Assembly (NCBI GenBank): GCA_041304525.1
Contig: JBFYNF010000045.1
Location: 7,479 to 71,478 of the forward strand
Reading direction: 5' to 3'
Length of the DNA: 64,000 nucleotides
DNA from: Thermoplasmata archaeon
GTDB lineage: Archaea; Thermoplasmatota; Thermoplasmata; UBA10834
A model generated the notes under the pieces. The model saw nothing but the letters and a program-made list of their open reading frames with translations. It was not told the DNA's origin and searched no databases. The position numbers and the translations under genes are program-made. Every line of letters begins with the position of its first letter. Position 1 is the stretch's first letter. Positions 9,567 through 37,351 of the stretch are shown piece after piece.

Positions 9567-9674
9567 GTCGGGGTGGCTCAGCCTGGTAGAGCGTCGGACT
9601 CATAGGGAGTTCTTCTGACCAGATGCTCCTAGGACATCCGAAGGCCGCGGGTTCGATTCCCGTCCCCGACACCA
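9567..9674 (+). tRNA. tRNA-Met (anticodon CAT, elongator type; could alternatively be tRNA-Ile2) with a 31-nt intron at the canonical 37/38 position; CCA encoded
   Basis: Manual fold: acceptor GTCGGGG/CCCCGAC, D arm GCTC..GAGC, anticodon stem TCGGA/TCCGA with loop CTCATA|intron|A, T arm GCGGG-TTCGATT-CCCGT, then ACCA. Intron 9605-9635 lies between the anticodon-stem halves. Confidence 0.75.
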
Positions 9675-20919: not shown

Positions 20920-21534
20920 ATGAAGAAGATATCCAAACCCAGAAGGGTGCGGATGGGCGAAGAGGCCGAGATGGGGGTCGGGACATTGCTGATCTTCATC
21001 GCGATGATACTTGTCGCGGCGGTTGCCGCGGGGGTGCTCGTCCAGACCGCGTATGTACTACAGCAGCAGGCGGAGTCGACAGGAGATCAAGCACTGATGG
21101 AAGTGGCAACGGGATTCAGAATACTCGCGGCGTACGGGGTGACGAACCTATCGGTCCCTGAGGTGACCGACCTATACATCAAGATAACCTTGGCGGCAGG
21201 TAGCCCGGTCATCAACCTCGAGCACGTGATCATCGAGATCACGAACGGCGACAACGACGTTTCGCTGGCGTTCAATGTCACTGGCTCTGATGTGGATTAC
21301 TTCGGCGCGACACAGATCAGGGACACCTATCCCACGAACGACTGGACCACTGGCGAGCCGGGGATGACACAAGGCGACATCGCCCTCATCCACGTGAACC
21401 TTAGTGCGAACAGCCTCAGTCTGGCGTCGCAGCAGCAGGCGGACCTGTTGATCATCCCGAAGCACGGCATACCGACATACCTGTCGGTGGTTGCGCCGTC
21501 AGTGCTCTCGAACACCTACGAGAACCTCACCTAG
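20920..21534 (+). CDS. arlB: archaellin (FlaB/ArlB) 1
   Basis: Class III signal peptide ..EAEMG|[26 protein letters not shown] and archaellin core. RBS GGAGGT upstream. Confidence 0.85.
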   Translation: MKKISKPRRVRMGEEAEMGVGTLLIFIAMILVAAVAAGVLVQTAYVLQQQAESTGDQALMEVATGFRILAAYGVTNLSVPEVTDLYIKITLAAGSPVINLEHVIIEITNGDNDVSLAFNVTGSDVDYFGATQIRDTYPTNDWTTGEPGMTQGDIALIHVNLSANSLSLASQQQADLLIIPKHGIPTYLSVVAPSVLSNTYENLT

Positions 21535-21557: not shown

Positions 21558-22019
21558 ATGAACGAGGACGGGGAAGCCGCGTTGGAAGTGATTTCGGTCG
21601 ATTCGAGGACCAACATCATCACGATGCGGTGGCTCTCGTTCCTCATGGACAAGATTGACCCTGAGGCATTGCCTGAGCTGTTCGTCTTCTACAAGAGGAT
21701 AGGGTGGCTGGGAACGCAGGCAGCCGCGTACATGTCTGCGTTGGCCGAAGGGGCGAAGCCCGAAGCGCCTTCTGAAGAGCAGGCGCTGATGGAAGAGGAC
21801 GTCGAAGACCACAACCTCCTGATAAGGAGAGGGACCGATTCCGGAAAGGAACCGATGGTGGAAGAGGTCGACTGGCGGCTGACGCCCGAGGACCACATCA
21901 AGTGCTGGATGTTCATGATGGAGATAGCCGGATTGGACGTCGATAGGAACACTTGGGTAGAGGTCGACGAGCGCATCAGCCGGTTCGAGAGAAGGCTCGC
22001 GGACTACTACAAGGTATGA
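21558..22019 (+). CDS. FlaD/E-family archaellum accessory protein (ArlE-like)
   Basis: Contains the Arch_fla_DE-type block TMRWLSFLMDKI. C-terminal HIKCWMFMMEIAGLDVDRNTWVEVDERISRFE is homologous to the C-terminus of the FlaC/D ORF at 25285-26442. Confidence 0.6.
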   Translation: MNEDGEAALEVISVDSRTNIITMRWLSFLMDKIDPEALPELFVFYKRIGWLGTQAAAYMSALAEGAKPEAPSEEQALMEEDVEDHNLLIRRGTDSGKEPMVEEVDWRLTPEDHIKCWMFMMEIAGLDVDRNTWVEVDERISRFERRLADYYKV

Positions 22020-22365: not shown

Positions 22366-24087
22366 ATGGGGCTTCGCAAGATCCGACAACTGAGGGCACA
22401 GGACGAAGAAGCCGATATCGGTATCGGTACTCTGATCATCTTCATCGCGATCGTACTAGTGGCGGCCATTGCGGCATCGCTCATACTGTACGCGGCCGCG
22501 CTGCTCCAGGAGCAGGCTGAGAGGACCGCGGACGACGCAGTATCGGAAGTGGCTGGTGGCCTGTCGGTCATCAACATAGCGGGTGACCGAAACCCGGACG
22601 GAGAAGCGTCGACGATAGTCTCGGGATACATGCCGGTGACTGACAACCATGCGCCCATCGGTGGAATACTATGGAATGTCACAGCCTCGACCGACGGGAC
22701 GTCAGTACTAGGGGTTGCCCTGAACTGGACCCCTGCGAACGATTTCGGGTCAGGGTTGTACGAGGAGATCGTGTACCGCACCTCCGTGTACGATCCCACC
22801 AACCCGGCCGTATTCAACGAACAGATCGCAAGGAACCGTCTCTTGACGCTCGACCAGCTGAACCCATCCATGGAGCTCGTCAGGCTCGGCGCGGGTTCCA
22901 GGTCTACCGTCCAATACACTGACTACACCGTTAGGGACGACAACTCGACCTCCTACGCCTACGCCATAGTGGGCGTGGACAGGGCGGGGAACGTCGTACT
23001 CTACACAGCCATCGACAGCTCCACCTCCACGGACGGCTCGTCGCATGACGAGGACCTCGTGCCGCCCTCCGGCGGCTCGATGACGAGCACTGCCAGGCCC
23101 GACGAATATTCAGTGGCGCTGTTCTGGGTGCCTGCGAGTGACGGCGCGAGCGGAATAGATGCTCAGAGGCTGTACAGGACCGAGGGGGCTGTGAGCTCTC
23201 TGCCTATAACCATCCAGGATGGAAGGACCGTGGTGACTGTCCCAGTCACGGTGACACTCTTGGAGGAGTTCAATTCCACCACATCGAGTCACGTCGACGC
23301 TCCCTCTGAGATCGGGGTGTACACGTACTTCATCGTGGTCCGAGACAACGCTGGGAACGAGGAGTTCATCGGCACCCTCAGTTACGACGCGCAGACGGTC
23401 GATTCGAACCCGCCCGAGAACGCAGGGTCGGTATCCGTCAGACAGGCCCCACAGTCAATGAACATATCCTGGACGGAGGCGACCGATGCGCAGACGGCTG
23501 TCTCTTCGTACCTGATCTTCAGGAGCACGAGTATCGGCACCCTTGACACGATTGAAGAGCTCATGACCATGGCGCCGTTGGCGGAGCTCGACTCGAGCGC
23601 CGGGAACTACTCCGACTACTCCGGTACGTCGGGCACGCTCTACTACTACGCAGTCGTGGCAGTCGATTCCGCCGGCAATTACGCTCAGTCCTCGATGCCA
23701 TCCAACACCATACAGATGATCGAGATCAAAGTCAAGACCGTCCCGGGAAGCAGGCCTGTGCAGTTCACGACCATGATGATCGAGATAACCGATGGCATGA
23801 CCGATGTCACCCTGAACTTCAACTCCGGTCAGTTGGGGGCCTCCGGCGCGACCGCCACCATGTTCTCCGCAGAGATCCTGAGGGATCCCGACAGCACCTT
23901 CGCCACCACATTCTCACTCTACGATGGTGCCCTAGTGAAGGTCTTCATCGACGCGGGCGAGATTGGATTGAGCCTGCATGCGGACTCGTCGTTCTCCCTC
24001 AAGTTCATACCGGCAATCGGGCAGCCGACCCTCGAGGAGTGCAGGATACCATACCTCGGTACGTATAGGTACGTAATACTCGTGTGA
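22366..24087 (+). CDS. arlB: giant archaellin (573 aa) with FN3/Ig-like central insert
   Basis: N-terminus ..EEADIG|IGTLIIFIAIVLVAAIAASLILYAA (class III). C-terminus IEIKVKTVPGSRPVQFTTMMIEITDG..VTLNFNSGQ matches the conserved archaellin C-domain. About 330 aa of FN3-like beta-repeats lie between. RBS GGAGAGGA. Confidence 0.75.
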   Translation: MGLRKIRQLRAQDEEADIGIGTLIIFIAIVLVAAIAASLILYAAALLQEQAERTADDAVSEVAGGLSVINIAGDRNPDGEASTIVSGYMPVTDNHAPIGGILWNVTASTDGTSVLGVALNWTPANDFGSGLYEEIVYRTSVYDPTNPAVFNEQIARNRLLTLDQLNPSMELVRLGAGSRSTVQYTDYTVRDDNSTSYAYAIVGVDRAGNVVLYTAIDSSTSTDGSSHDEDLVPPSGGSMTSTARPDEYSVALFWVPASDGASGIDAQRLYRTEGAVSSLPITIQDGRTVVTVPVTVTLLEEFNSTTSSHVDAPSEIGVYTYFIVVRDNAGNEEFIGTLSYDAQTVDSNPPENAGSVSVRQAPQSMNISWTEATDAQTAVSSYLIFRSTSIGTLDTIEELMTMAPLAELDSSAGNYSDYSGTSGTLYYYAVVAVDSAGNYAQSSMPSNTIQMIEIKVKTVPGSRPVQFTTMMIEITDGMTDVTLNFNSGQLGASGATATMFSAEILRDPDSTFATTFSLYDGALVKVFIDAGEIGLSLHADSSFSLKFIPAIGQPTLEECRIPYLGTYRYVILV

Positions 24088-24245: not shown

Positions 24246-24566
24246 TCAAGCCAACCTTGGGAGGCACATCTCTCTCACTCCCCGCTGTAGGGCACGGCGG
24301 TTGCCTCGGAGGTGAGGCGTGAGGACCTGGTAAACACGATTGACCTGGTTGCCGCCAGAATCGATTGATCGCCCCAGAGCAACGACGTGCCAAGTACGGG
24401 GTACAAAACCGTGTGTTTTGGACCTACATCGAGCAGAGGAAGCTCTCGATGTCCCGCCTGTGGCGGGGGAGCCAGGATCGGCTCTGACGATCCCCGCGCC
24501 GGCAGGTTCGCCGGTCGTCCCTCAGGTACGGAACCTGGGAAAGATGCGAGATTGGAGGAAGAAAGA

Positions 24567-25181
24567 ATGCAGAAACTAGCATGGAAGAAGAGGAAGATGG
24601 AAGAGGAAGGTGAGATGGGTGTTGGTACCCTTCTGATCTTCATCGCCATGATACTCGTAGCCGCTGTGGCCGCGGGTGTACTGGTTCAGACCGCATACAA
24701 GTTGCAGCAACAGGCTGAGAGCACCGGTAACGAGGCACTGCAGGACGTCGCCACGGGCTTCAAGGTCCTGACTGTCTGGGGAACCACGGGCACTGGTGGG
24801 AACATCACTGACGTGTACCTGAAGATCGCCCTTACGGCGGGCAGCCCCGGCATCAACCTTGCAGACGCCAAGATCGAGGTCATACAGACAATCGGCGGAA
24901 CCACTGCCTCTGAAGTGACCCTTGATTATGTGGACGGCGCGCCATCGGCATCGGCGTTCAACGCAACTGTGCTGAGGGACATGGCTCCGTCGACGACTGC
25001 CGCGATGATGACCTCTGGCGACATATTCCAGGTCCACCTTGACCTCGAGACGATGGTCATGGGTCTGGATGTCCAGGAGCAGCTCTCTGTGTTGCTGATG
25101 CCGAAGCACGGTGTCCCAACACTGTGTGAGATAACTGCGCCCTCGACGCTCGAGGCAAGCAGCGTGGTTGTCCTGAAGTAG
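24567..25181 (+). CDS. arlB: archaellin (FlaB/ArlB) 3
   Basis: [18 protein letters not shown]|[26 protein letters not shown]; near-identical signal and N-domain to archaellin 1. RBS GGAGGAAGAAAG. The track ORF starts further upstream (24387) without archaellin-like sequence. Confidence 0.85.
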
Positions 25182-25284: not shown

Positions 25285-26442
25285 ATGGCTGGCCTGTTCC
25301 GCAAGAAACCAGAGAAAGACGGTTCCTCCGCAAGAAGGAAGCTGAAAGGCTTCGAGGAGGGATTCGAAGAGGAGGCGGAAGAGGGGGCCTACGAGGAGAC
25401 TGAGACTAGCCAGAGAGCCGACAAACTCGTCAGCGCGGAAGATGAAGACTACTTGGGAGAGGACGAGGCCAGCGGCGCAGGTCTCGCAGGCGTCAAGGAG
25501 CTAAGCGAGCTCATGGGACGCCTGGAGGAGATCGAGGACAAGATGGGCCGGATCGACTCCGCTCTCACAACGGATCGGAACGAGAATGCCAAGGTCCGGG
25601 ACCGGCTCAATCAGATGGAACAGGACATCAGGAAGCTCCTTTCCGTCTACGAGGTCGTGTCCACCAAGTTCAACCCCTTCCTAGATGTCTCCGAGAAGAC
25701 CCCCCCACCTGTCCAGCCCCAACCGGCTGTGATGCCTGAGCCCGCTCCGTTCGCTCCAATCGAGCTGGACGGGGACATACCGGAGTTCCGGCCATATCAG
25801 GAAGGGGAAGTGGAGCCGCCCACCTTCAATGGCAAAGGGCCCAAGGCCAGCCGCGACGCCGCCCCGTGGGAGCCAGGGACGTCAACCGCTACCGTTGAGA
25901 CAGTGTTCTCCGGACCCAGGAGAGAGCCCCCACCGACACTCGACAAGACCTCGAAGGACGAGAAGTATGAAAGGCAGGTGAGAGCGTCCGCGAGGAGCAA
26001 ACACAACAAGAAGCCGCTCCTTGCGTACATCCCACACGACTACCTGACGCTGGTCCTCGTGATGCGCTGGATAGAGTTCCTGTTCGAGCGCGTGACCAGG
26101 GAAAGGATGTCGCTCGTGCTAGACTACTATGTCGATGTAGGATGGATCAGCGAGGACGTGAAATCAGAGATCATGTCCTACGCGCGCGGAGAAATGCAGG
26201 ATGTGACCAAGTACATGGGCCAAGAGGAGGTAAGGGAGGACGTGTTCCGCGACCTCCCGCCGCCGACAGCGGCCCCGTACAAGAAGGTCGAGGACTGGCG
26301 TCTGTCCGCAGACGACCACCTGAAGTCCCTGCTGTTCGTGCAGAAGATAGCCGGACTAGAGGTTGACAAGGACCGCCTTAACTCCCTCGAACAGAACATC
26401 TCCAAATTCAAGGAGAGTCTGGAGGGCTTTCATGGGGTTTAG
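25285..26442 (+). CDS. FlaC/FlaD-like archaellum accessory protein (N-terminal FlaC-type coiled coil, C-terminal FlaD/E domain)
   Basis: Coiled-coil block LEEIEDKMGRIDSALTTDRNENAKVRDRLNQMEQDIRKLLSVYEVVSTKFNPF is FlaC-like. C-terminus has LVLVMRWIEFLFERV and ..LLFVQKIAGLEVDKDRL homologous to the ArlE-like ORF. Confidence 0.7.
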   Translation: MAGLFRKKPEKDGSSARRKLKGFEEGFEEEAEEGAYEETETSQRADKLVSAEDEDYLGEDEASGAGLAGVKELSELMGRLEEIEDKMGRIDSALTTDRNENAKVRDRLNQMEQDIRKLLSVYEVVSTKFNPFLDVSEKTPPPVQPQPAVMPEPAPFAPIELDGDIPEFRPYQEGEVEPPTFNGKGPKASRDAAPWEPGTSTATVETVFSGPRREPPPTLDKTSKDEKYERQVRASARSKHNKKPLLAYIPHDYLTLVLVMRWIEFLFERVTRERMSLVLDYYVDVGWISEDVKSEIMSYARGEMQDVTKYMGQEEVREDVFRDLPPPTAAPYKKVEDWRLSADDHLKSLLFVQKIAGLEVDKDRLNSLEQNISKFKESLEGFHGV

Positions 26443-27622
26443 TGTCTCGGCTACAATGGCGATATTCTTCGCCGCCTTTCTAATCCTTTTTTCTATTCTT
26501 TATTCCTCTTTGAACGACGCCTTCGACTCTGTGTCGGAGTCGTTCGATGAGAAGTACGAATACATGAACGATCGACTCGATACGCAAGTGACGATACTCG
26601 ACGTCAGTTACCAGAGGGACTCAAACACCCTAGATATCAGGGTCCAGAACACTGGCAGCAAGGTCCTGGACATATCCAAGGTCGACCTGATTCTGGAAGG
26701 GGCCATCCCCACGTCGTTCAATAAGACCATCCAGGGGACGGACACAGAGGTTTGGCTCCCGACTGAGGTCCTCACGATCACTGTCGATGATCCCGATGTG
26801 TCATTCGAGACTGACCTCGACCCGCGCGCTTCGCTCACCAATGACGCCTCCCTGTCTGCCCCCTCGAATGTCTCCGTTGGAGAGAGCGTCTACGTCCTGG
26901 ATGGACAGGACATAGATGTCTTCACGCTCGGAGGTGTCTTCGATTTCACGATTACAGACTCATCAAACATGGTCTCGCCCTCTGACCTGAAAGTGTGGGG
27001 AGATTATCTCTACGTACTGGACGAGGGCACACACATCGATCGGTTCGGACTCGACGGGGCTTGGGTGGACCGGATAGTGAACGACACGACGAACTCGTCC
27101 ATCCTGACCTCATTCAGCGTCGATTCCGAGTACATATACATCATAGACAACAGGAGCCACATCGACCGGTATGGCCTGGCCACAGGAATATTCGTGGACT
27201 CGATTGTGCCGAACGGAGGCACGATGACATCGCCGCGAGACATCTTCGTCAGCTCGCACATCTTCGTGATCGACTACAGTTCGGGATACCATGTTGACGT
27301 GTACGAGCTGGACGGCAGCGGAGGGACGGAGTTAGTCGGCACGGTAGGGCTCTCGTCGCCAACGGATATCTGTGCCAGCGCGAACGGCCTGGACGACGTG
27401 TATGTGTATGTCGTCAACGGATCGAGCGAGGTGGCCGTGTTCAACGCAACGGGGTCGCCCGTGGACATAGTCGACAGCCTGCTGAGCGACTCTGTGATCG
27501 CCGTAGACGTCACAGGCAAGATGTATGTCTCTGACAATGTGAATGGACTCGTCGTGGAGAACCTGGGTACTAACATCAAAGTGGTGGTAGAGAATGGAAT
27601 CTCATGTGTCACAGTGCAATAG
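26432..27622 (+). CDS. FlaF (ArlF)-like protein fused to a C-terminal NHL-repeat beta-propeller
   Basis: N-terminus MGFSVSATMAIFFAAFLILFSILYSS and the following beta-sandwich match FlaF. From about residue 170, five or six repeats of the type YVLDGQDIDVF / YVLDEGTHIDRFGLDG / YIIDNRSHIDRYGL / FVIDYSSGYHVDVYELDG / YVVNGSSEVAVFNATG are NHL-like. Confidence 0.65.
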   Translation: MGFSVSATMAIFFAAFLILFSILYSSLNDAFDSVSESFDEKYEYMNDRLDTQVTILDVSYQRDSNTLDIRVQNTGSKVLDISKVDLILEGAIPTSFNKTIQGTDTEVWLPTEVLTITVDDPDVSFETDLDPRASLTNDASLSAPSNVSVGESVYVLDGQDIDVFTLGGVFDFTITDSSNMVSPSDLKVWGDYLYVLDEGTHIDRFGLDGAWVDRIVNDTTNSSILTSFSVDSEYIYIIDNRSHIDRYGLATGIFVDSIVPNGGTMTSPRDIFVSSHIFVIDYSSGYHVDVYELDGSGGTELVGTVGLSSPTDICASANGLDDVYVYVVNGSSEVAVFNATGSPVDIVDSLLSDSVIAVDVTGKMYVSDNVNGLVVENLGTNIKVVVENGISCVTVQ

Positions 27623-27625
27623 GAG

Positions 27626-28072
27626 GTGGAGATGATGGGCGCAAGCGGAGCATCGACTCAGCTGATATTCTTCATATCCGCGTTGATCGTGGCAACGGCA
27701 GTAGTCGCCGTGGCCGCCAACGGGGTGTCCAAGATAACCAACGGGATAGACCAGAAGAGCGATAATGTGGAGAAGGATCTGCTGACGGACATTTCGATAA
27801 TAAACGACCCTGACGAGATCCCGAACGACCCTGTCAGGATATATGTCAAGAACGTGGGCAAGACCGTCCTGAACCAAAACTATATCACAGTAATGCTGGA
27901 TGGGTTTGCGGTCACGAACTACACGCTGACGCTGAGCGGGAGCACGTTGTCCTACTGGGACCCCGCGAGCATGCTGACGATATCAATAGACCAGAATTTG
28001 GCAGAGGGGGACCATTCGGTACAGGTGACCACCGAGAACGGCGTCTCTGACAAGCTCAGCTTCCGCATATGA
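27626..28072 (+). CDS. FlaG (ArlG)-like protein
   Basis: Hydrophobic N-terminus QLIFFISALIVATAVVAVAANG followed by a beta-sandwich domain; position between FlaF and FlaH. ATG at 27632 with AGGAGGTGG RBS is the likely true start. Confidence 0.7.
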   Translation: MEMMGASGASTQLIFFISALIVATAVVAVAANGVSKITNGIDQKSDNVEKDLLTDISIINDPDEIPNDPVRIYVKNVGKTVLNQNYITVMLDGFAVTNYTLTLSGSTLSYWDPASMLTISIDQNLAEGDHSVQVTTENGVSDKLSFRI

Positions 28073-28076
28073 CGGG

Positions 28077-28787
28077 GTGAACCCTCCAATGGGGGAGACC
28101 TACAAGCTACAGATACCCAGAGACGACCTACATGACCAGCTAGGTCAGGGCCTCCCCGCGGGAACGATAACGTTGGTCGAGGGAGCGCATGGGACCGGAA
28201 AAAGCGCCCTCGTCCAGCGGATGATCTACGGATTCCTTTCGAACCAACACTCGGTAACGTGCATATCGACGGAGCTGACCGTCAGGGACTTCATCAACCA
28301 GATGTACTCGCTCGACTACCCCATATCCTCATGGCTCCTGAACGGGAAACTGAAGTTCGTGCCTGTGTACCCACTCGTGGGCAAGGCCAGGAAGAGGAGC
28401 GACTTCCTGGGCATGCTGATGGGCTCCGAGGAACTGTACAAGAGTGACATCATGATCATAGATACCTTCTCCAGCCTCGTCAGCAACAGCCTTCATGGGG
28501 AAGACAACAGCATAGGTGTGCTGTCATTCTTCAAGAGACTCACCGGCATGGGTAAGAGCATCGTGGTGACAGTGGACCCGACTGAACTGGACCCTAAGGC
28601 GCTCGCACCGTTCGAGTCGGACAGTCACGTGTATTTGAGCATAATCGTGTCACAGGTCGGCGGGATGATATCCAGGAGCATCATGGTGAAGCGGTTCGGT
28701 GGCACCGAGTACAGGGTGTCCCCGGTCGTGGGCTTCAGGATAGAGCCTAATGTGGGCATGGTCATCGAGATCACATCAGTCGTGTGA
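28077..28787 (+). CDS. arlH: FlaH (ArlH) KaiC/RecA-like ATPase
   Basis: Walker A LVEGAHGTGKSALV and RecA-like core. Conserved operon position before FlaI. Confidence 0.8.
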   Translation: MNPPMGETYKLQIPRDDLHDQLGQGLPAGTITLVEGAHGTGKSALVQRMIYGFLSNQHSVTCISTELTVRDFINQMYSLDYPISSWLLNGKLKFVPVYPLVGKARKRSDFLGMLMGSEELYKSDIMIIDTFSSLVSNSLHGEDNSIGVLSFFKRLTGMGKSIVVTVDPTELDPKALAPFESDSHVYLSIIVSQVGGMISRSIMVKRFGGTEYRVSPVVGFRIEPNVGMVIEITSVV

Positions 28788-28797
28788 GGTCACGGTC

Positions 28798-30429
28798 ATG
28801 GCGGCGAAGTTCAGCAAGGTCCTGGAACGGAATCCCCACCTGAACGTCTATCTTCAGAGATACGCTCAGGAGACAAACCAGTCGCCGAAGTTCATGGACA
28901 CACTGGGCAGGGATCTCGGGAAGGAGGCGACCGTGGATGTCATCTACCCTGTCGGCGACCCGATATTCATACACCTGCACGGCTCCAAGGACACCGGGCA
29001 CAAGTACGATGTCGTGCAGCCAATGATGGAGGACGAGCTTGGCAAAGCGTACGAGAAGGTCGTCAATAATGTCTTCTTGAAGTCAGGGAAGGAGAAGATC
29101 CACTCGACCGATGAGGAGTTCAACGAGGTCCTGGACAAGCTCCTGAACGAAATAGTCGAGGTCACAGAGAGACGCATCCCCTCGAAGGTCGTACAGCTGT
29201 TCAAACCCAACTCCAAGATCTACGTCACCCCAGATGACTACAGCATCCTGGAGTACTACGTCAAGAGGAACATCCTCCAGAACGGCATCCTCGAACCGAT
29301 ACTCAGGGACCCGTACATAGAGGACATCCACTGCGTCGGCGTCAGGGAGGTGAACCTGTACCACAAGATCCTGGGCATGGTGGAGACGAACATCAAGTTC
29401 TCGAACGTCTCAGACCTGGACAAGTACACCAAGGGGATGAGTGAAAGGATGGGTCGTCCCGCATCGATATCGAGACCGATCATCGACGGCGCCCTCCCGG
29501 ACGGTTCCCGTATCAACATCATCTACGCTGACGACGTGAGCGTCAACGGGCCGACATTCACCATCAGGAAGTTCTCAGCGGAGCCGCTGAGTGCCGCTCA
29601 ACTCTCTGGATGGAACACTGTCTCCGCGCAGGAGGCCGCATACCTCTGGCTCTGTCTCGAGAACGGCATGAGCGTGTTCGTCTGCGGTGAGACCGCCTCA
29701 GGTAAGACGACCCTGCTCAACGCCATATTCCCGTTCATAAGGTACGACCAGAAGATATTCTCGGCTGAGGACACCCTGGAGGTGCAGCCGCCTCACGCCG
29801 TCTGGCAACAATTATCCACAAGGGAGTTCGGCCCGGAGGAGAGCAAGGTGGACACCTTCGCCCTCCTGAGAGCTGGACTCAGGTCCAGACCCAACTACAT
29901 CATCGTGGGTGAGATCAGAGGGAAGGAAGGGAACGTCGCGTTCCAGGCGATGCAGACTGGCATCCCGGTCATGGCGACATTCCACGCCGCCTCCGTCAAG
30001 AGGATGATACAGAGGTTCACCGGCGCCCCGATCAGCGTGCCCATCACGAGCATGGACAACCTCAACGTGGCGGTCTTCCAGGCGGGCGTATACAGGAACG
30101 GGAAGTTGATCAGGAGGACCCTGTCCATCGAGGAGATACTGGGCTACAGCGAGTCGATGGGCGGAGTGATGACCAGGGCAGTCTTCGTATGGAACCCGGT
30201 GAGCGACCAGCACATATTCCGAGGGATGAACAACTCGTTCATACTGGAGGAAAGGATCGCCGTCAAGAGGGGGTACAAGGACAAGAGGGACATATACAAG
30301 GAACTCGCCCTCAGGACCAGGATCATCGAGAAGATGGTCGAGACGAACATGACCTCCTACAAGACAGTCAACGACATCCTCAAGGCATTTCAGAAGGAGG
30401 GAGTGGCCGGCCTGCCGTTCACGGTCTGA
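28798..30429 (+). CDS. arlI: FlaI (ArlI) archaellum assembly/motor ATPase, copy 1
   Basis: Secretion ATPase of the type II/IV family: Walker A VCGETASGKTT and Walker B/His box. N-terminus MAAKFSKVLERNPHL. Confidence 0.9.
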   Translation: MAAKFSKVLERNPHLNVYLQRYAQETNQSPKFMDTLGRDLGKEATVDVIYPVGDPIFIHLHGSKDTGHKYDVVQPMMEDELGKAYEKVVNNVFLKSGKEKIHSTDEEFNEVLDKLLNEIVEVTERRIPSKVVQLFKPNSKIYVTPDDYSILEYYVKRNILQNGILEPILRDPYIEDIHCVGVREVNLYHKILGMVETNIKFSNVSDLDKYTKGMSERMGRPASISRPIIDGALPDGSRINIIYADDVSVNGPTFTIRKFSAEPLSAAQLSGWNTVSAQEAAYLWLCLENGMSVFVCGETASGKTTLLNAIFPFIRYDQKIFSAEDTLEVQPPHAVWQQLSTREFGPEESKVDTFALLRAGLRSRPNYIIVGEIRGKEGNVAFQAMQTGIPVMATFHAASVKRMIQRFTGAPISVPITSMDNLNVAVFQAGVYRNGKLIRRTLSIEEILGYSESMGGVMTRAVFVWNPVSDQHIFRGMNNSFILEERIAVKRGYKDKRDIYKELALRTRIIEKMVETNMTSYKTVNDILKAFQKEGVAGLPFTV

Positions 30430-30443
30430 TCCGCGTTTGCTGG

Positions 30444-30509
30444 CACTGATAGTCAGGCCTGAGAATTGGGCGCCAACCCTTATTACTTCAGGTTCTGGAT
30501 TGGCCTTTG
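30444..30509 (+). promoter_or_regulatory. conserved promoter/start module A (shared with 34185-34252): TGATAGTCAGGC..GAGAATTG.GCGCCAA.CCTTAT, about 22 nt, then start codon and GCCACCG
   Basis: About 36 of 41 nt identical to the element before the surface-protein gene. Same spacing (22-24 nt) from the TTAT(T/G)A box to a start codon (TTG 30507), consistent with a BRE/TATA and leaderless start. Confidence 0.5.
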
Positions 30510-30608
30510 AGGCCACCGAGCGCAGGCTCCACAGGGCTACCTCCGCCCAAGGGTGCGGCATTGGCTCTGCTCAGGAGCCGCTTGAGGCGCCTCAGCGGAT
30601 GGGTGAGG

Positions 30609-32258
30609 ATGCCTGCAGACGAAGCTGGCCTGAAGAAGGCCATGAGGAAGAACCCGCACCTCCTTGAATACGTCCAGGAGTTCGTCAGCAGACACAGGTC
30701 GCCTCCAGAGTTCCACCCCGTGGTCGAACGCAAGATGGGGGACGAGCAGCAGGTCAACGTGATCTACCCGATAGGCGACCCGCTCTTTGTCCATGTGTTC
30801 TCGACAGATAGCATACCCATCAGCTACAAGTCCGTGCAGCCGCCGATGACGCCGGACCTGCAGCCCAAGTACAGAAAGGTCATCCAACAGGTCTACAACA
30901 AGGCCGTCTACATGGACCCGCACGAATCTGTGGAGGAGTTCGAGAAGAATCTCCTGCAGCTGATAGACGCCTCGACAAAGATCTCCGAGAGCAGCACGGA
31001 TGGCGACGGCAAACGCATCTTCGGCGACCTTTTCACGGAGCCAAAGATATTCGTCACCCAGCACGAGCAAGACCTGATCAAATACCATGCGAAGCTGGCG
31101 ATTGTGCTAGCAGGACCCCTTGAGCCACTCCTCAGAGACCCGTACATCGAAGATATCCACTGCATCGGACACGACAACGTCTCCATCGTCCACAAGATAT
31201 TCCAGGCGATGCCGACCGATGTGAAGTTCGAGTCGATGGAGGAACTCGACAACTATGTTCGGGCCTTGAGCGAGAGGATAGGCAGGCCGGCGTCGATGGC
31301 TAGGCCGATAGTGGACGGTACGCTTCCTGACGGGTCACGTATCAACCTCATCTACGCTGACGATGTGAGCGTCAAAGGCCCCAGCTTCTCCATCAGGAAG
31401 TTCGCCGAGGAACCTATAAGCATAACCCACCTGATCGAATGGAACACCATCAGCGCCCAGGAAGCCGCCTACATATGGCTCTGCCTGGAAGAAGGCATGA
31501 GCATATTCTTCTGCGGGGAGACGGCGTCGGGCAAGACGACGACCATGGGCGCGGCCCTCCCATTCATCAAGTACGACAGCAAGGTCTACACGGCCGAGGA
31601 CACCATCGAGATGCAGGTTCCACACAAGGTGTGGCAGAGGTTGGCAACGCGGGACTTCGGCCCTGAGGAGAGCAGGGTCGACACGTTCTCACTGCTCAAG
31701 GCCGCTCTAAGATCGAGACCGAACTTCATCATAGTCGGAGAGATTAGGGGCAAGGAAGGGAGCGTTGCGTTCCAGGCCATGCAAACGGGCCACCCCGTCC
31801 TGTCCACGTTCCACGCGGCATCGACGAGGAAGCTCATACAGAGATTCACCAGCGACCCCATCAATGTGCCCATCACGTTCATAGACAACCTGAATGTCGC
31901 GTTCTTCCAGGCAGGCGTGTACAGGGAAGGTAAATTCCTGAGACGGACGATGTTCATTGATGAGATCGTCGGGTACAACGAAGCGCTAGGCGGGATCATG
32001 ACCCGGACCATCTTCCTGTGGAACGCCGCGGACGACTCTCACATGTTCAAGGGGATGAACAACTCCTACATCCTCGAGGAGAAGATTGCGGTCAAGAGGG
32101 GCTACAGTGACAAGAGGAAGATATACGGTGACCTGGCCCTCAGGACCAAGATACTCGAAGAGATGGTCTCCAGGAAGATATTCAAGTACGAGAAGGTGGC
32201 GGAGATAACCAAGGAGTTCCAGAAGAAGGGGGTGAGCGGCCTACCGTTCCCCGTGTAG
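30609..32258 (+). CDS. arlI: FlaI (ArlI)-family ATPase, copy 2 (tandem paralogue)
   Basis: About 60-65% identical to copy 1 over the ATPase core (GRPASMARPIVDGTLPDGSRINLIYADDVSV...CGETASGKTT). ATG 30609 aligns with the copy-1 N-terminus. An in-frame TTG at 30507 adds 34 Arg/Pro-rich residues and sits at the conserved promoter-module spacing, so the true start may be 30507. Confidence 0.85.
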   Translation: MPADEAGLKKAMRKNPHLLEYVQEFVSRHRSPPEFHPVVERKMGDEQQVNVIYPIGDPLFVHVFSTDSIPISYKSVQPPMTPDLQPKYRKVIQQVYNKAVYMDPHESVEEFEKNLLQLIDASTKISESSTDGDGKRIFGDLFTEPKIFVTQHEQDLIKYHAKLAIVLAGPLEPLLRDPYIEDIHCIGHDNVSIVHKIFQAMPTDVKFESMEELDNYVRALSERIGRPASMARPIVDGTLPDGSRINLIYADDVSVKGPSFSIRKFAEEPISITHLIEWNTISAQEAAYIWLCLEEGMSIFFCGETASGKTTTMGAALPFIKYDSKVYTAEDTIEMQVPHKVWQRLATRDFGPEESRVDTFSLLKAALRSRPNFIIVGEIRGKEGSVAFQAMQTGHPVLSTFHAASTRKLIQRFTSDPINVPITFIDNLNVAFFQAGVYREGKFLRRTMFIDEIVGYNEALGGIMTRTIFLWNAADDSHMFKGMNNSYILEEKIAVKRGYSDKRKIYGDLALRTKILEEMVSRKIFKYEKVAEITKEFQKKGVSGLPFPV

Positions 32259-32265
32259 GTCCTCC

Positions 32266-33927
32266 ATGGCTGCGAGCAAGATGAAGCGTCTCTACCAGTC
32301 CCTCGACATGCCCGTTGAGAAGTACTTCACGAGATACGCTCTCCCGCTCGTGATAGCGGGCATCGGCGCGACTGCCCTGCTGGTCTTCCTATTCCCCGAA
32401 CTGGCGGCCGATGGGCTGTTCAAGTATGTGTTCCTGGCAATCCCTGTCCTCTTCTCGGTCGTGGCAGTAATATACCCGATGCTACAGGGTGAACGGAAGA
32501 AGGTCCAGATAGAAAGGAACATGCACCTGTTCCTCGTCAGGATGAGCGTCCTCTCGACATCGAAGCTGCCAAGGAAGAAGATGCTCGAGATCCTTTCGAA
32601 GGTCAAGGAATATGAAGCGCTCAGCCTTGAAATCGAGAAGATCTACAAGCTCATGGAATACTGGAACATGGGTCTCTCGGACGCCGCGAGGACCGTCTCC
32701 CGCAAGACTCCCTCGCCGATGCTAGCAGATTTCCTCGACAGGCTCGCGCACTCATCCGATGCGGGCGAGGACCTCGAGGAGTTCCTCACCAAGGAGCGGG
32801 AGGTGTCCATGAGCGTCTACATCAACAAGTACGAGACGGCGCTCAAGGACCTCGACCTGCTGAACGAGATATTCGTCGCCGTGCTGATATCCCTGATGTT
32901 CATCCTCGTGTTCGTCGCGCTCCTGCCCGTGTTCGTGGACATATCCATCACCCTCATTCTTCCGGGCGTCGCGCTGCTGTTCGTCATCGTCGAGGGGATG
33001 GTGCTGTATCTGGTCAAATCGCTACTTCCATCGGACCCCATATGGCACAACATCAAGGGGCAGACCGAGATCGACAAGGTGATGAAGTCCGTCCTTCCGG
33101 CGACATACGCGGCATGCATCGGGTTCGCCGCCTTCGGGTTCCTGACGGGCTTACCCCTGATGCTCATAGTCGCGCTTGTCGTCACACCGCTCCTGTATCC
33201 AGGGTTCATGATAAGGAGGGAGGAGAAGCGGGTCAGGGCCAGGGACGAGAACTACGATTCGTTCATGAGGGCCGTGGGCAGCTACGCGGCATCTGCTGGC
33301 TCCGCGGTCACGGATGGCGTCGGCAGGCTGAGCAAGCACGACTTCGGGGAGCTCTCGGAAGGCATAGTGATCCTGTACAAGCGCCTGCTCACCCGGATAG
33401 ACCAGATACGCGCCTGGAACCTGTTCGCAGCCGAGAGCGGGAGCAACCTGATCTCCAAGTTCACGGAGATGTATGTCGTCGGTCTGTCCGTGGGCGGGAA
33501 GGTGGACAAGGTCATCGACATCATCAGCGACAACTTCGTGAAGCTGATGGGCGTCAGGCGCAAGAGGTACCAGTCATCCGACAACATGCTGGGGACATTG
33601 TATGGGATGTCCGTCGGCATAACGTTCACCTTGTTCTCCGCGCTGAGCCTGATGCAACTCCTGAACATCATGAACGAGCAGTTCGCGCTCTCCCAGACGA
33701 CGATCAATCTGCCCATCGCGCTGAAGCCATTCGACCTGGGCCTGGCTGAGGCGGTCTTCCTGCTCATCATGCTCGTGCACTCGCTCATATCCGCGAACCT
33801 CGTCTCCTTCGCCGGCGGCAGCCACAAGCATAGTTTCTACATCAACTTCGCAATCATAACATGGATCAGCACCGTGACGGCCATCGTCACACAGTTGATG
33901 CTCGACAAGGTCCTGAACCTCTCATGA
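32266..33927 (+). CDS. arlJ: FlaJ (ArlJ) polytopic membrane platform protein
   Basis: 553 aa with two TadB/C (T2SSF)-like halves and multiple TM helices. Immediately follows the FlaI genes. Confidence 0.85.
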   Translation: MAASKMKRLYQSLDMPVEKYFTRYALPLVIAGIGATALLVFLFPELAADGLFKYVFLAIPVLFSVVAVIYPMLQGERKKVQIERNMHLFLVRMSVLSTSKLPRKKMLEILSKVKEYEALSLEIEKIYKLMEYWNMGLSDAARTVSRKTPSPMLADFLDRLAHSSDAGEDLEEFLTKEREVSMSVYINKYETALKDLDLLNEIFVAVLISLMFILVFVALLPVFVDISITLILPGVALLFVIVEGMVLYLVKSLLPSDPIWHNIKGQTEIDKVMKSVLPATYAACIGFAAFGFLTGLPLMLIVALVVTPLLYPGFMIRREEKRVRARDENYDSFMRAVGSYAASAGSAVTDGVGRLSKHDFGELSEGIVILYKRLLTRIDQIRAWNLFAAESGSNLISKFTEMYVVGLSVGGKVDKVIDIISDNFVKLMGVRRKRYQSSDNMLGTLYGMSVGITFTLFSALSLMQLLNIMNEQFALSQTTINLPIALKPFDLGLAEAVFLLIMLVHSLISANLVSFAGGSHKHSFYINFAIITWISTVTAIVTQLMLDKVLNLS

Positions 33928-34184: not shown

Positions 34185-34252
34185 ACATGATAGTCAGGCG
34201 CGAGAATTGAGCGCCAAACCTTATGAGTGGATAGACCTGATTTTGACATATG
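34185..34252 (+). promoter_or_regulatory. conserved promoter/start module B (paralogue of 30444-30509)
   Basis: CACATGATAGTCAGGCGCGAGAATTGAGCGCCAAACCTTATGAG, then 24 nt, then ATGGCCACCG (start of the 1033-aa surface protein). Contains the internal GGCGC..GCGCC inverted repeat. Confidence 0.5.
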
Positions 34253-37200
34253 GCCACCGTGAGTAGGACGGCGCTCACGAGCACGATGCTCGTTGTTCTG
34301 CTCCTCCCGATGACGCTCATGGTCCTGCTCCAAGGACCGCCGGCGCCGTCCGCTCACGCATTTCCCATAGACGATTTTGGGAGCAGCATCAGACTCACTT
34401 TCGACCAAGCCATATCGACCAACGTATCCTCCAGCGTGGATGACGACGGCAATATACACGTCGTGTGGGAAGACTACAGGTCCGGGGCCGGGGACATCTA
34501 CTACATGAAGCTGGACGACGAAGGCAACAAACTCACCAACGACGCGAAGATATCCAACGACACCACCGCATCCCGGAACCCATCGGTGGCAGCTGACTCG
34601 GACGGACACATATACATCGTGTGGGAGGATGTGGACAACGGCTCGTCTGAGCTATTGTTCGCGAAGCTGTGGTACTACGAGGGCAACATCACATTCCAGG
34701 AGAATGGGCTCCAGGTATCGGACAGCGACCCCGCGAACTCGACTGAGCCGGACATCGCCGTGTGCCAGGACGGCAACCTATCCTTGGTTTGGACCGACGC
34801 TCGGCACGACGCCGGCGACGGCAACCTGGAGATCTACTATAAGCGCCTGAGGATGTCAGGGACCTCTCTCACACCCGATACGCGCGTGACTGGAGACGTT
34901 GGACGGTCTGAACACCCGAGGCTCGATACAGACTCTGATGGTATGGTCCACATCGTCTGGTACGATTTCAGGGACTCCAGTAACGGCCTGGTGATCAACC
35001 ACGGCGTGTTCTACAGGAAGGTCATAATGGACGGCACGCCCCTGACACCCGAGACGAGGATCACCTTCGCTTCACCTCAGTCGAGGCCTGACATAGCAAT
35101 AGACACTGATGGAAACGTACACGTGGTCTTCGACGACGACCGGTATGCGAGTTTCGACATATTCTACACGCTCCTCGACCCTGACGGGAACACACTCGTG
35201 GATGACAGGAACATCTCACCCAAAGACGACAACGAGTCCAGATGCCCCAGGATAGCCCTGAGCGACTCCAACGCAGTCGATGTCGTGTGGCAGGACCAGA
35301 CGTCCGGTCTATGGGCCATCCACTACTCCGCGATGAACTACAACGGTGAAATCGAGGTCTACGACCAAGGACTGACTTCAGAAACGGTCGGGAACGCCAC
35401 CATCCCTGTGGCGATGTGCGCGAATGACAACAACACCCTCGTGATGTATGTGGGCGACTATCCGAACATGGAGGTGTTCTTCTCAAGGACTCACAGGCCG
35501 GATCCGGCGGTGCTCGCGGGCGGGATTTCCATGTCATCCACCCAACCACTGATCGGGACCACTGTCTGGGTCAATGCGACCGTGTGGAACCTCGAAGGGG
35601 ATGCCCTAACGGATCTGGCTGTCCGCCTGATGGTCGATTCGGTGGCGGTCGAAGACGCCACTGTAGCCTACCTAGTAGCAGGGCACTCAACCGTCGTCAG
35701 TTTCTCACACACAGCGTCCGAAGGCGAGACCATCGTGACTGTGGCCGTCGACCCTGATCAGACCGTAAGGGAGACATTTGAGACCAACAACCAACAGTCA
35801 GCCCCTATGCTCGTCCGGACGCCCGGGGTCGTTCTGACGTCCGACGTCAGCAGCCAATCTGCTGAGCCCGACGAGACGGCCATATTCAACATCACAATCA
35901 CCAACGAAGGCAACACGGCGTTCTCATTCTGTCTGTCGAACTCCGAACCTGAGAGCGGCTGGATCATTGACCTGGGTGGCTCGCCTGAGGGCATCTACAC
36001 GGTTCCCGCAGGCTCGTCGGCCGTGGCTACTGTTGAGGTCACGGTTCCCGAGGATGAGACGCCTGGAGCGCGTGCGTTCTCCGTGCTCGCCACATGCGTC
36101 GAAAGAGACTCCGTCAACGACAGCGTCACCCTCATGGTGGATGTCGTCAGGTTCGGCGAACTGACTGTTGTATCGTCCGACGGAGGAGATGTCGAGCCGA
36201 CCATCCCTGAGCTATACACGTTCACTGTCTCAAACTCGGCCAACGCCAATGAGACCTTCGCGGTCTCGGCCTCCGACCTCCTCGGATGGGACCTCGTCGC
36301 TTCCCATGACGAGCTGGAGCTCGCACCCGGTGAGGAGGCTGAGGTGTCCGTGCTCGTGACGCCTGCTAGGTACGATCCCCCGGGCACACTGAATACGCTC
36401 ACGTTGACCCTGTCATCCATGAACTTGACCTGGAACACAGTGGAAGGGAACTTACTCATGATCGTGGGGCATCACTGGGAGGTCGACGCCAAGCTGACGC
36501 AACAGGCGTTCCTCAACATGTCTGTGCCAGATGAGAGAGAGGTCAGGTACATCCTCGATGTGACGAACCTAGGCAACTCAGATGATGTGTTCAGGCTGAG
36601 TCTATCGGGGATTGATGCGTTCTGGGCCACCCTGAACACGACCTATGTGTTCCTCGGAGCCGGGGACGAGCAGCAAGTCTACATATCCCTCACACCAGGC
36701 GTGGACGTGCTCGCAGGCGCATACCCTTTCAATGTGACCGTCGTGTCGGAATCCGACGACAATGCGACGGAGACCCTGGAGATGGGAGTGTCCGTGTTGC
36801 CGTTCTACGACATCTCAGTATCGGCTGAGTTCGCACAGGTGAGCCTACGACGAGGAGAGACCGCGTTCGTCAACCTGACGGTCCGGAACACCGGCAATTC
36901 GGCGGATGTCGTCGACCTGTACGCGTACGTGGGCGCCCTAAACACGACAACGGCTACCTTTGTGGGTGAGGTGGTGTCACTGGAAACGGGAGACCCCATC
37001 CTCATCGCTCTGGAACCCGGAGGGTCTGCCACAATCATGCTGACGATACCGGTTCCCGGAGATGTCGAGATCGGCTTGCAGGACTTGTGCATGGACTTCA
37101 GTTCCATGACCGACCCGAGCGTTATGGCATCTCAGACCGTCAGTGTGCTAGTAGAGGATGACCCGTCTTGGTTCACTCTGTGGGTCATACTGATCATAGT

Positions 37201-37351
37201 CGGCGCAGCAGTGGCCGTCGTGGTCCTCGTCGTGTTCCTGATACTCAGGAAGAGGAGGGCAGAGGAGGTCGCAAGGGAGGAGGAGCGGCGGAAGATGCAG
37301 GCAAGGAAGAGGCCTCCGGGGCCCCCGAGGGTCAAACCGAAAGCGCCGTGA
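34250..37351 (+). CDS. large cell-surface protein: signal peptide, six-bladed beta-propeller-like repeats, CARDB-like and several Ig-like domains, C-terminal TM anchor with basic tail
   Basis: Six repeats of the type D.DG..H(I/V)VW.D.R.G..DIYY. Segment ..VTVAVDPDQTVRETFETNNQQS matches the CARDB E.nE.NN end. Many N-x-S/T sequons. End is WVILIIVGAAVAVVVLVVFLILRKRR. Confidence 0.7.
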   Translation: MATVSRTALTSTMLVVLLLPMTLMVLLQGPPAPSAHAFPIDDFGSSIRLTFDQAISTNVSSSVDDDGNIHVVWEDYRSGAGDIYYMKLDDEGNKLTNDAKISNDTTASRNPSVAADSDGHIYIVWEDVDNGSSELLFAKLWYYEGNITFQENGLQVSDSDPANSTEPDIAVCQDGNLSLVWTDARHDAGDGNLEIYYKRLRMSGTSLTPDTRVTGDVGRSEHPRLDTDSDGMVHIVWYDFRDSSNGLVINHGVFYRKVIMDGTPLTPETRITFASPQSRPDIAIDTDGNVHVVFDDDRYASFDIFYTLLDPDGNTLVDDRNISPKDDNESRCPRIALSDSNAVDVVWQDQTSGLWAIHYSAMNYNGEIEVYDQGLTSETVGNATIPVAMCANDNNTLVMYVGDYPNMEVFFSRTHRPDPAVLAGGISMSSTQPLIGTTVWVNATVWNLEGDALTDLAVRLMVDSVAVEDATVAYLVAGHSTVVSFSHTASEGETIVTVAVDPDQTVRETFETNNQQSAPMLVRTPGVVLTSDVSSQSAEPDETAIFNITITNEGNTAFSFCLSNSEPESGWIIDLGGSPEGIYTVPAGSSAVATVEVTVPEDETPGARAFSVLATCVERDSVNDSVTLMVDVVRFGELTVVSSDGGDVEPTIPELYTFTVSNSANANETFAVSASDLLGWDLVASHDELELAPGEEAEVSVLVTPARYDPPGTLNTLTLTLSSMNLTWNTVEGNLLMIVGHHWEVDAKLTQQAFLNMSVPDEREVRYILDVTNLGNSDDVFRLSLSGIDAFWATLNTTYVFLGAGDEQQVYISLTPGVDVLAGAYPFNVTVVSESDDNATETLEMGVSVLPFYDISVSAEFAQVSLRRGETAFVNLTVRNTGNSADVVDLYAYVGALNTTTATFVGEVVSLETGDPILIALEPGGSATIMLTIPVPGDVEIGLQDLCMDFSSMTDPSVMASQTVSVLVEDDPSWFTLWVILIIVGAAVAVVVLVVFLILRKRRAEEVAREEERRKMQARKRPPGPPRVKPKAP

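Follow-up and report, generated by a model that had tools for sequence, protein, structure and literature searches.

How the stator of the archaellum is anchored in the envelope has not been settled, and the question is sharpest in the Thermoplasmata. The DNA analysed here, a 64,000-nucleotide stretch of a contig from a Thermoplasmata archaeon (the window), bears on it through a single gene, which the original prediction read as encoding the stator component ArlF (FlaF) joined to an NHL-repeat beta-propeller. Is the gene a real unit, how are its two parts put together, and what might such a propeller do in a stator?

An intact gene in a complete arl operon

The arlF gene with its propeller (26432..27622, + strand) is one intact open reading frame of 396 amino acids plus stop, with no internal stops in the translation. 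Its ATG, at 26432, follows a GGAGG motif at a distance of 7-8 nt and overlaps the stop of the preceding gene, a fused arlC-arlD/E (25285..26442, +) with matches to the Pfam models FlaC_arch and Arch_fla_DE. On the other side lies arlG (27626..28072, +), which encodes a protein of ordinary size (148 amino acids; NCBIfam ArlG, 101.9 bits), the presumed partner of ArlF. It is followed by the motor core (28077..33927, +), namely arlH, two tandem arlI paralogues, and arlJ, identified by NCBIfam matches of 248 bits for ArlH, 725 and 709 bits for the two FlaI, and 554 bits for ArlJ. The gene thus occupies the arlF slot, between arlC/D/E and arlG, inside a complete arl (archaellum) operon.

The same architecture recurs in related genomes, as had been suggested. 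Homologues fall into 62 protein clusters, nearly all of 396-399 amino acids and covering 88-100% of the query; the exceptions are two short entries of ~250 amino acids. The architecture is present in 17 species-level Thermoplasmata genomes, including two MAGs assigned to the order UBA10834, and the gene order arlC/D/E-arlF-arlG is kept in at least 15 related loci. About 12 more distant ArlF-propeller proteins, 390-420 amino acids long, share 28-40% identity. Both of the distant fusions whose contigs were fetched lie in arl gene clusters: L023 has the same gene order, and in L022 the fusion gene follows flaC and flaD/E on a short contig without arlG. The protein P0064 carries an extra 165-amino acid domain, for which no Pfam match was found. 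A description of an ArlF with a propeller insertion was not found in the searchable literature; the architecture is undescribed, and a group of uncultivated Thermoplasmata has conserved it.

These data also speak to the trivial explanation, in which the fusion is an artefact of assembly or gene calling, or a decaying gene. In the MAG UBA9653 the assembly does break inside the gene, with one locus (L019) ending at residue 56 and another (L003) starting near residue 28. However, the intact 396-399-amino acid frame is found in assemblies made independently of each other, among them closed chromosomes of 1.4-2.0 Mb, and the N-terminus MGFSVSAT is common to the homologues aligned in full and almost invariant in a 48-sequence family alignment. 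Comparison with a 94% relative gave 22 nonsynonymous and 49 synonymous codon differences in arlF, which indicates that the propeller-bearing gene is under purifying selection; loops were only mildly enriched in substitutions. With a tail that returns to the ArlF fold, as described below, an artefact is vanishingly improbable and was already refuted by the conservation data; neither a frameshift nor two separate genes, the outcome that would have undone the original reading, is seen here.

A propeller nested in the ArlF sandwich

The first 120 residues match the NCBIfam ArlF equivalog (NF052590) with 110.7 bits, just over the cutoff of 110; the ArlG model scores 44.6 bits. An AlphaFold2 (AF2) model has a helix at residues 3-50, corresponding to the N-terminal hydrophobic or transmembrane helix of ArlF (residues 1-50; 26432..26581, +), which is the most conserved segment of the protein (mean identity 74%). 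Strands beta1-beta6 of an archaellin-type beta-sandwich follow (residues 51-121; 26582..26794, +), as delimited by ArlF HMM positions 1-121 and by AF2 strands at 53-61, 66-73, 85-88, 96-100, and 113-119. When the N-terminal model was compared to the PDB with Foldseek, the top three matches were to Sulfolobus acidocaldarius FlaF (4p94/4zbh). The N-terminal construct lacks the last two strands, which is why these matches are weak (E 0.013-0.06, TM about 0.37). Thus, the model and the Foldseek matches agree on the helix followed by an archaellin-type sandwich that is expected of ArlF.

Size is where the protein departs from its family. ArlF is typically a small single-domain protein of about 130-170 amino acids, and that of S. 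acidocaldarius has 164 (PDB 4P94, 4ZBH; Banerjee et al. 2015, PMC4425475), whereas this one has 396, with about 260 residues inserted between ArlF profile positions 121 and 122. The original prediction placed the propeller after the FlaF part as a C-terminal extension; tests on a construct from which the propeller had been excised argue for an insertion instead. The excised construct scored 125.4 bits against the ArlF HMM and aligned over all 137 profile positions (1-137/137), whereas constructs with ten control tails scored 114.6-118.4 bits and none of the ten reached the profile end. It also aligned end to end with the operon's own ArlG (E 8e-15), and an HMM of the excised family covered ArlG positions 1-133. 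The tail itself, residues 381-396 (NIKVVVENGISCVTVQ; 27572..27619, +), could be aligned both to SVQVTTENGVS, the C-terminus of ArlG, and to the tail of the archaellin-like pilin 8fk7. Against the PDB, the excised-construct profile found weak matches to archaellin-like pilin (E 0.02) and to FlaF (E 0.07). Phmmer with the excised construct matched only gephyrin in the PDB, which we judged to be chance, and the excised construct as a homologue-search query returned one truncated match.

Because the last 16 residues supply strands beta7-beta8 of the ArlF sandwich, the sequence tests place the propeller (about residues 122-380, including its linker) in the beta6/beta7 loop of ArlF rather than at its C-terminus. 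Together with the strand counts, they suggest that residues 381-395 form strands that pair with the sandwich. The resulting order, beta1-beta6, insert, beta7-beta8, agrees with the FlaF crystal description, in which no loop is longer than beta6/beta7, which lies at the far end from the N terminus and is proposed to contact the S-layer (PMC4425475). Placement of the insert in this particular Sulfolobus loop follows from the strand order, since the 4p94 profile alignment ends before the loop. The FlaF-like portion therefore amounts to about 120 residues plus the last 16, not the uninterrupted 170 first proposed, although its homology to ArlF stands. Sulfolobus FlaF and this protein share the N-terminal membrane helix, the eight-strand archaellin/Ig-like sandwich, and a gene beside arlG in the arl operon. 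They differ in the beta6/beta7 loop, which has 8 residues in Sulfolobus (LPYPPY) and about 260 here.

The chain leaves the sandwich through a linker (residues 122-132; 26795..26827, +) that is the least conserved segment (34%) yet ends in R132, which is invariant across the family. Residues 133-380 (26828..27571, +) then form, in the AF2 model, a beta-propeller of the NHL type with 24 strands in six four-stranded blades that superpose on solved NHL domains. On the strand counts and general propeller topology, the strand at 133-137 would close blade 6. The original estimate was about 220 amino acids with five or six repeats; the domain is larger, with about 245 amino acids and six blades. All five of the repeat motifs that it quoted are present in the translation. 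The internal repeats are ~42 residues long. With HMMs built from single blades of the family alignment, other blades were recognised in the query with scores of up to 40.6 bits, whereas the best shuffle of 2000 reached 9.3-13.9 bits; most pairs among blades 1-5 lie above the shuffles. Blade 6 gave no sequence signal for the repeat and is recognisable by structure only.

Assignment to the NHL family came by an indirect route. Pfam NHL (PF01436) stayed below its gathering threshold on the C-terminal part (E 4.4, 8 bits against a cutoff of 20), and DUF5128, a six-bladed propeller family, was also sub-threshold in a Pfam search at a permissive threshold (E 0.19). A sequence search of the PDB gave just a marginal match to a designed 'Pizza' propeller, and when the propeller alone was used in a word-indexed homologue search, the fusion family was all that came up, with no stand-alone relatives. 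Exhaustive phmmer, in contrast, reached the NHL proteins P0087, P0090, and P0109 (E 1.3e-6 to 2.5e-4), in which Pfam NHL matches at E 1.5e-51, 3.8e-17, and 7.9e-21, respectively, and alignment of the family profile with P0087 by hhalign gave 97.7% (E 1.5e-12, 181 columns). ArlF HMM, AF2 model, NHL homology, and relatives thus agree on an ArlF joined to an NHL-type propeller. Comparable NHL-repeat propellers are those of TRIM2, TRIM71, Brat, and Mei-P26, and the extracellular sensor domain of Mycobacterium tuberculosis PknD (1RWI). In the present protein, by contrast, the repeats are too diverged for the Pfam NHL threshold, the host is a stator component of the type IV filament family, and the propeller is nested within another domain rather than terminal.

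What the propeller may do

We propose that the gene product is an archaellum stator ArlF with a complete six-bladed NHL propeller between sandwich strands six and seven. An insertion there leaves both the N-terminal helix and the sandwich in place, so that the association with the membrane or with ArlG should be that of an ordinary ArlF, and the propeller should lie at the membrane-distal tip because the beta6/beta7 loop of Sulfolobus FlaF is far from the N-terminal helix. The pI of the protein (4.05) and its conserved N-glycosylation sequons, N146 in 40 and N329 in 39 of 48 sequences, point to an extracellular character. If the usual propeller topology holds, the chain ends would enter the bottom face and the top face would look outward. 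An enlarged, lineage-specific head that binds the outer envelope layer, either a surface glycoprotein or glycans, is the most likely role of the propeller; with the stator fastened to the envelope in this way, the motor would push against a fixed point. As a result of the insertion, the motor's hold on the cell envelope is probably altered. As a whole, an ArlF stator with a propeller in its beta6/beta7 loop that serves as an enlarged envelope-binding head is the explanation we favour, with moderate confidence; within it, we infer that the propeller faces outward, that it binds, and what it binds to. Attachment of the propeller to some unusual protein of the envelope or cell surface, as first suggested from the sequence, is plausible, and the envelope-attachment idea gains support because the insertion site corresponds to the loop proposed as the S-layer contact (PMC4425475).

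Between lineages the top-face loops vary more than those of the bottom face (conservation 0.34 versus 0.47); within the core clade the two are equally conserved (0.63 versus 0.62), and therefore no binding face stands out.

A candidate partner is encoded downstream of the operon. The gene at 34250..37351 (+) specifies a 1033-amino acid, membrane-anchored protein resembling a surface glycoprotein, and docking of the propeller on it, as a dedicated anchoring post that replaces a crystalline S-layer, would be a rather doubtful alternative. Its signal peptide, propeller-like N-terminal region with BNR-like repeats, Ig/CARDB domains, many sequons, and C-terminal transmembrane helix are as expected for an envelope protein. 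With 89% identity to the related locus L004, against 98-100% for the cytoplasmic components, it evolves more quickly than they do, as do ArlF, ArlG, and the archaellins. It adjoins arlJ in all core-clade loci that reach far enough. However, a 322-nt spacer between arlJ and this gene suggests a separate transcript, a homologue was not found beside the arl genes in L016 and L017, two of the more distant loci that carry the fusion, and none is evident among the called genes of L023. The only link to the ArlF propeller is conserved adjacency in the core clade, which in a single clade may be inherited synteny.

Might the propeller instead be structural, a spacer or oligomerisation module that encircles the shaft in the periplasm as a ring or collar, in the manner of a bushing? 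Scaffolding is a common role of propellers, an arrangement of ArlF/ArlG around the motor has been proposed (PMC8667602), and the propeller is at least as conserved as the sandwich (50-70% versus 46%). The insertion is nevertheless at the membrane-distal tip, away from the surfaces known to serve ArlF dimerisation or contact with ArlG, and the surface loops vary between lineages, so that we regard a collar as unlikely.

Still less probable is an extracellular sensor like the NHL domain of PknD, or a six-bladed enzyme of the lactonase or PAL kind, that would tune the motor or modify the envelope. Enzymes of the SMP-30, gluconolactonase, and PAL types line their central channel with conserved polar residues for metal binding or catalysis, and no such set was found here: in the wider family the invariant or near-invariant propeller residues are only Gly, Pro, Leu, Val, and one Arg (R132, the sole polar one), with no such His, Asp, or Glu among 17 diverse fusion proteins. 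The His, Asp, and Arg residues that do occur belong to the ordinary structural NHL consensus, as in 'nhriqvf' of P0087. The SGL and lactonase Pfam models did not match the propeller, and ArlF has no output domain. Sensor and enzyme readings were judged unlikely on these grounds.

An envelope-binding head would have parallels in other motile or adhesive machines. PilY1 of bacterial type IV pili likewise puts a beta-propeller on a type IV filament-family machine, where it serves surface or partner binding; it is a separate, seven-bladed protein of the filament tip, not a stator component, and is not known to have sequence homology to this ArlF. MotB of the bacterial flagellar stator, with its OmpA-like peptidoglycan-binding domain, is an analogy only, as a stator subunit that has a dedicated wall-binding module for torque, since the proteins, folds, and energy source are all unrelated.

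Closer comparisons come from within the archaea. S-layer binding has been shown for Sulfolobus FlaF; for the present ArlF, binding of the envelope is a prediction. Cultured Thermoplasmatales (Oxyplasma, Thermoplasma) belong to the same class, Thermoplasmata, and their ArlF has the same operon role, but AlphaFold models of it show minor differences only and a distinct binding motif was not reported (ISME J 2025, PMC12448462). That study found no special ArlF feature in S-layer-less cultured species and left the anchoring question open. In the lineage of the present ArlF the propeller is an obvious extra module. It is possible, if far from probable, that splicing a ligand-binding NHL propeller into the very ArlF loop proposed to touch the S-layer in other archaea provides S-layer-independent anchoring in lineages that perhaps have no crystalline S-layer, with the 1033-amino acid glycoprotein as a possible dedicated post. 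If true, this would explain in concrete molecular terms how archaella can produce torque on cells that lack an S-layer.

The family amounts to a natural experiment, in which a recognisable binding module sits in the very ArlF loop proposed as the S-layer contact; its position supports the view of the membrane-distal ArlF tip as the business end of the protein. Annotation pipelines miss the propeller, calling the protein 'hypothetical' or plain FlaF, because it falls below the Pfam NHL threshold. The ectodomain is tractable for pull-downs and structures, and its architecture indicates that the stator, like the archaellins, evolves by domain insertion.

The archaellum cluster and its arlF gene

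The arl/fla cluster that holds arlF in the window is complete. An extra archaellin (20920-21534), adjoined by a separate small arlD/E-like gene (21558-22019), is followed by an archaellin-like gene (22366-24087), an archaellin (24387-25181), a single fused arlC-arlD/E ORF (25285-26442, 385 aa; Pfam FlaC_arch and Arch_fla_DE), arlF with its propeller (26432-27622, + strand), an arlG of ordinary size (27626-28072, 148 aa), arlH (28077-28787), tandem arlI paralogues (28750-30429 and 30507-32258), and arlJ (32266-33927). The archaellin-like product (573 aa) joins an archaellin N-terminal helix to hundreds of Ig/fn3-like residues, with weak Big_13 and fn3 matches. It is conserved in the clade (ca. 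59-66% identity) and could represent a minor or a decorated archaellin. The two copies of ArlI, the motor ATPase, are 56% identical, retain an intact Walker A motif (GETASGKTT), and each exceed 700 bits against the FlaI equivalog. Most of the core clade, the closer relatives that share this operon, keeps both copies, and a more distant fusion-bearing operon (L023) has one arlI; this duplication of the archaellum ATPase is unusual. Elsewhere in the window, a 105-nt tRNA detected by Rfam (9567-9671; 60.7 bits) and missed by ARAGORN is probably an intron-containing archaeal tRNA.

The arlF coding region is one uninterrupted ORF of 396 codons rather than two genes or a frameshifted pair, and all five repeat motifs quoted in the original prediction are present in its translation. 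The longest mechanical ORF begins upstream, at a TTG (26363); however, the ATG at 26432 is preferable because it lies 7-8 nt downstream of a GGAGG, overlaps the last 11 nt of the preceding gene, stop codon included, and yields MGFSVSATMAIFF, the conserved family N-terminus. Comparison with a 94% identical relative (22 nonsynonymous versus 49 synonymous codon differences) shows purifying selection. In the source databases, ArlF-propeller proteins are labeled "hypothetical protein" or "archaellum component FlaF".

A propeller nested within the ArlF sandwich

The N-terminal part of the protein is ArlF, as originally predicted. Residues 1-120 score 110.7 bits on the NCBIfam ArlF equivalog (cutoff 110) versus 44.6 bits on ArlG, whereas for the following gene the order is reversed. 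An AlphaFold2 model built from a 48-sequence alignment shows a helix (residues 3-50) followed by beta-strands in the ArlF part. When residues 1-135 were modeled separately and searched against 350,542 PDB chains, the three best matches were to Sulfolobus acidocaldarius FlaF (4p94, 4zbh). Their weakness (E 0.013-0.06) is in line with a sandwich missing its last two strands.

Fold and profile homology identify the rest of the protein as an NHL-type propeller, although it fails the Pfam threshold. The expected NHL repeats were not recovered by the short Pfam model (E 4.4), and other propeller hints were all sub-threshold; nevertheless, an exhaustive phmmer search of 1.84 billion representatives with the propeller reached true NHL proteins, one of which matched the family profile with 97.7% probability (E 1.5e-12). 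Structure prediction bore out the propeller: the full-length model, of high confidence (pLDDT 90.8, pTM 0.83), places exactly 24 strands in residues 133-377 and has the NHL domains of Brat and Mei-P26 as its best Foldseek matches in the PDB (E 7.6e-11; target-normalized TM 0.69-0.71). For most pairs among blades 1-5, an HMM of one blade recognizes the other with a score well clear of 2000 shuffles; blade 6 has diverged.

The two parts predicted to be fused are both present, but the propeller is nested in the sandwich rather than appended to it. The ArlF HMM alignment of the full-length protein ends at position 121 of 137, and the last 16 residues of the family are conserved (LGTxIKVVTENGIS). 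When residues 1-121 were spliced directly to 381-396, the ArlF score climbed from 115.1 to 125.4 bits and the alignment now ran to profile position 137/137, whereas ten control tails (four shuffled, six other 16-residue propeller segments) gave 114.6-118.4 bits and never reached the profile end. This propeller-excised construct and the ArlG of the same operon align over their full lengths (E 8e-15), with NIKVVVENGIS opposite SVQVTTENGVS; the excised-family HMM spans ArlG positions 1-133 of 137, and a PDB profile search aligned the tail to the C-terminal strand of the archaellin-like pilin 8fk7. We therefore infer that strands 381-385 and 391-395 are beta7 and beta8, in contact with the rest of the sandwich. 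Most simply, strand 133-137 would complete blade 6 as its "velcro" fourth strand, giving 6 x 4 = 24 strands.

The FlaF crystal structure has eight strands, and its beta6/beta7 loop, the longest one, lies far from the N terminus and was proposed as an S-layer contact (PMC4425475). In the ArlF part the order is beta1 (53-61), beta2 (66-73), a short helix, beta3 (85-88), beta4 (96-100), beta5 (about 107), beta6 (113-119), the insert, beta7 and beta8, which, set against the crystal description, places the propeller in the beta6/beta7 loop at the membrane-distal tip. Velcro-closed propellers have both chain ends at the bottom face, and in NHL domains the top face is the usual ligand face. By this standard topology, the top face would point away from the sandwich and membrane.

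Conservation and spread

Related genomes carry the same propeller, as had been anticipated. The arlF product matches 62 clusters (90% identity), nearly all 396-399 aa, most at 43-95% identity and two at about 30%. It occurs in 17 GTDB species (one representative genome each, including three closed chromosomes), all labeled Thermoplasmata, Thermoplasmatota or "Methanobacteriota archaeon". The nearest relatives are from the MAGs UBA9653 (95%) and S06.Bin063 (94%); UBA9653 and UBA10834 belong to the uncultured order UBA10834, near Methanomassiliicoccales (bioRxiv 10.1101/2020.03.09.984617). The UBA9653 assembly breaks within arlF: one contig (DUKU01000026.1), 100% identical to the window, carries the protein only up to residue 56, and another (DUKU01000024.1), 95% identical, begins near residue 28, which suggests strain-level heterogeneity in arlF. 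The core clade throughout conserves the gene order of the operon, with its duplicated arlI and a downstream gene for a 1033-aa protein with CARDB domains. Divergence is faster in the extracellular components (archaellins, ArlF, ArlG and the 1033-aa protein) than in ArlH, ArlI and ArlJ.

The exhaustive search also returned ca. 12 further fusions of 390-420 aa (28-40% identity), with the propeller at residues ~140-400. ArlF was the best N-terminal HMM in all ten scanned (69-93 bits, under the 110-bit cutoff). Two of their contigs were examined: in L023, whose operon has one arlI and lacks a CARDB neighbor, the fusion is flanked by arlC/D/E and arlG, and in L022 it comes after flaC and flaD/E on a short contig without arlG. 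Two Thermoplasmata MAG loci with a ~30% identical fusion (L016, L017) keep ArlF-propeller and arlG-H-I-J without the CARDB neighbor; L017 has a second arlI-like gene 3' of arlJ, not before it. A distant metagenomic ArlF-propeller homolog (P0064, 565 aa) has an extra ~165-aa domain, without a Pfam match, nested between blades 1 and 2 (alignment columns ~201-340), so that three domains sit one within another.

A predicted envelope-binding head

In published work (including PMC8667602 and PMC12448462), ArlG spans the pseudoperiplasm as a filament capped by ArlF, ArlF in turn binds the S-layer, and loss of the S-layer anchor abolishes swimming. Together with the insertion site, this makes a putative enlarged envelope-binding head on the archaellum stator the best-supported interpretation of the propeller. 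The acidic domain (pI 4.05) and its conserved sequons are consistent with an extracellular location. Three observations speak against an enzyme or a sensor of a conserved ligand: R132 is the only invariant or near-invariant polar propeller residue in the wider family, core-clade His/Asp/Arg motifs are ordinary NHL structural consensus, and loops on the top face differ more from lineage to lineage than those on the bottom face (0.34 versus 0.47).

In the core clade only, a reasonable candidate partner for such a head is the 1033-aa protein (34250-37351), which follows arlJ after a 322-nt spacer and is encoded directly 3' of arlJ in every core-clade locus extending far enough. It has a signal peptide, CARDB, NPCBM-assoc and FixG_C Ig-like domains, six BNR-like "DGxxHVVWxD" repeats, many N-x-S/T (N-glycosylation) sequons, and a C-terminal membrane-anchoring TM helix with a basic tail. 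This predicted surface glycoprotein is possibly the main envelope protein of the lineage.

Full-text literature searches turned up nothing relevant on FlaF, ArlF or the archaellum with NHL, beta-propeller or domain insertion, and a 2025 Thermoplasmatales study describes no distinctive ArlF features in cultured species (PMC12448462). For the unsettled question of stator anchoring the ArlF-propeller is directly relevant, which makes it moderately interesting.
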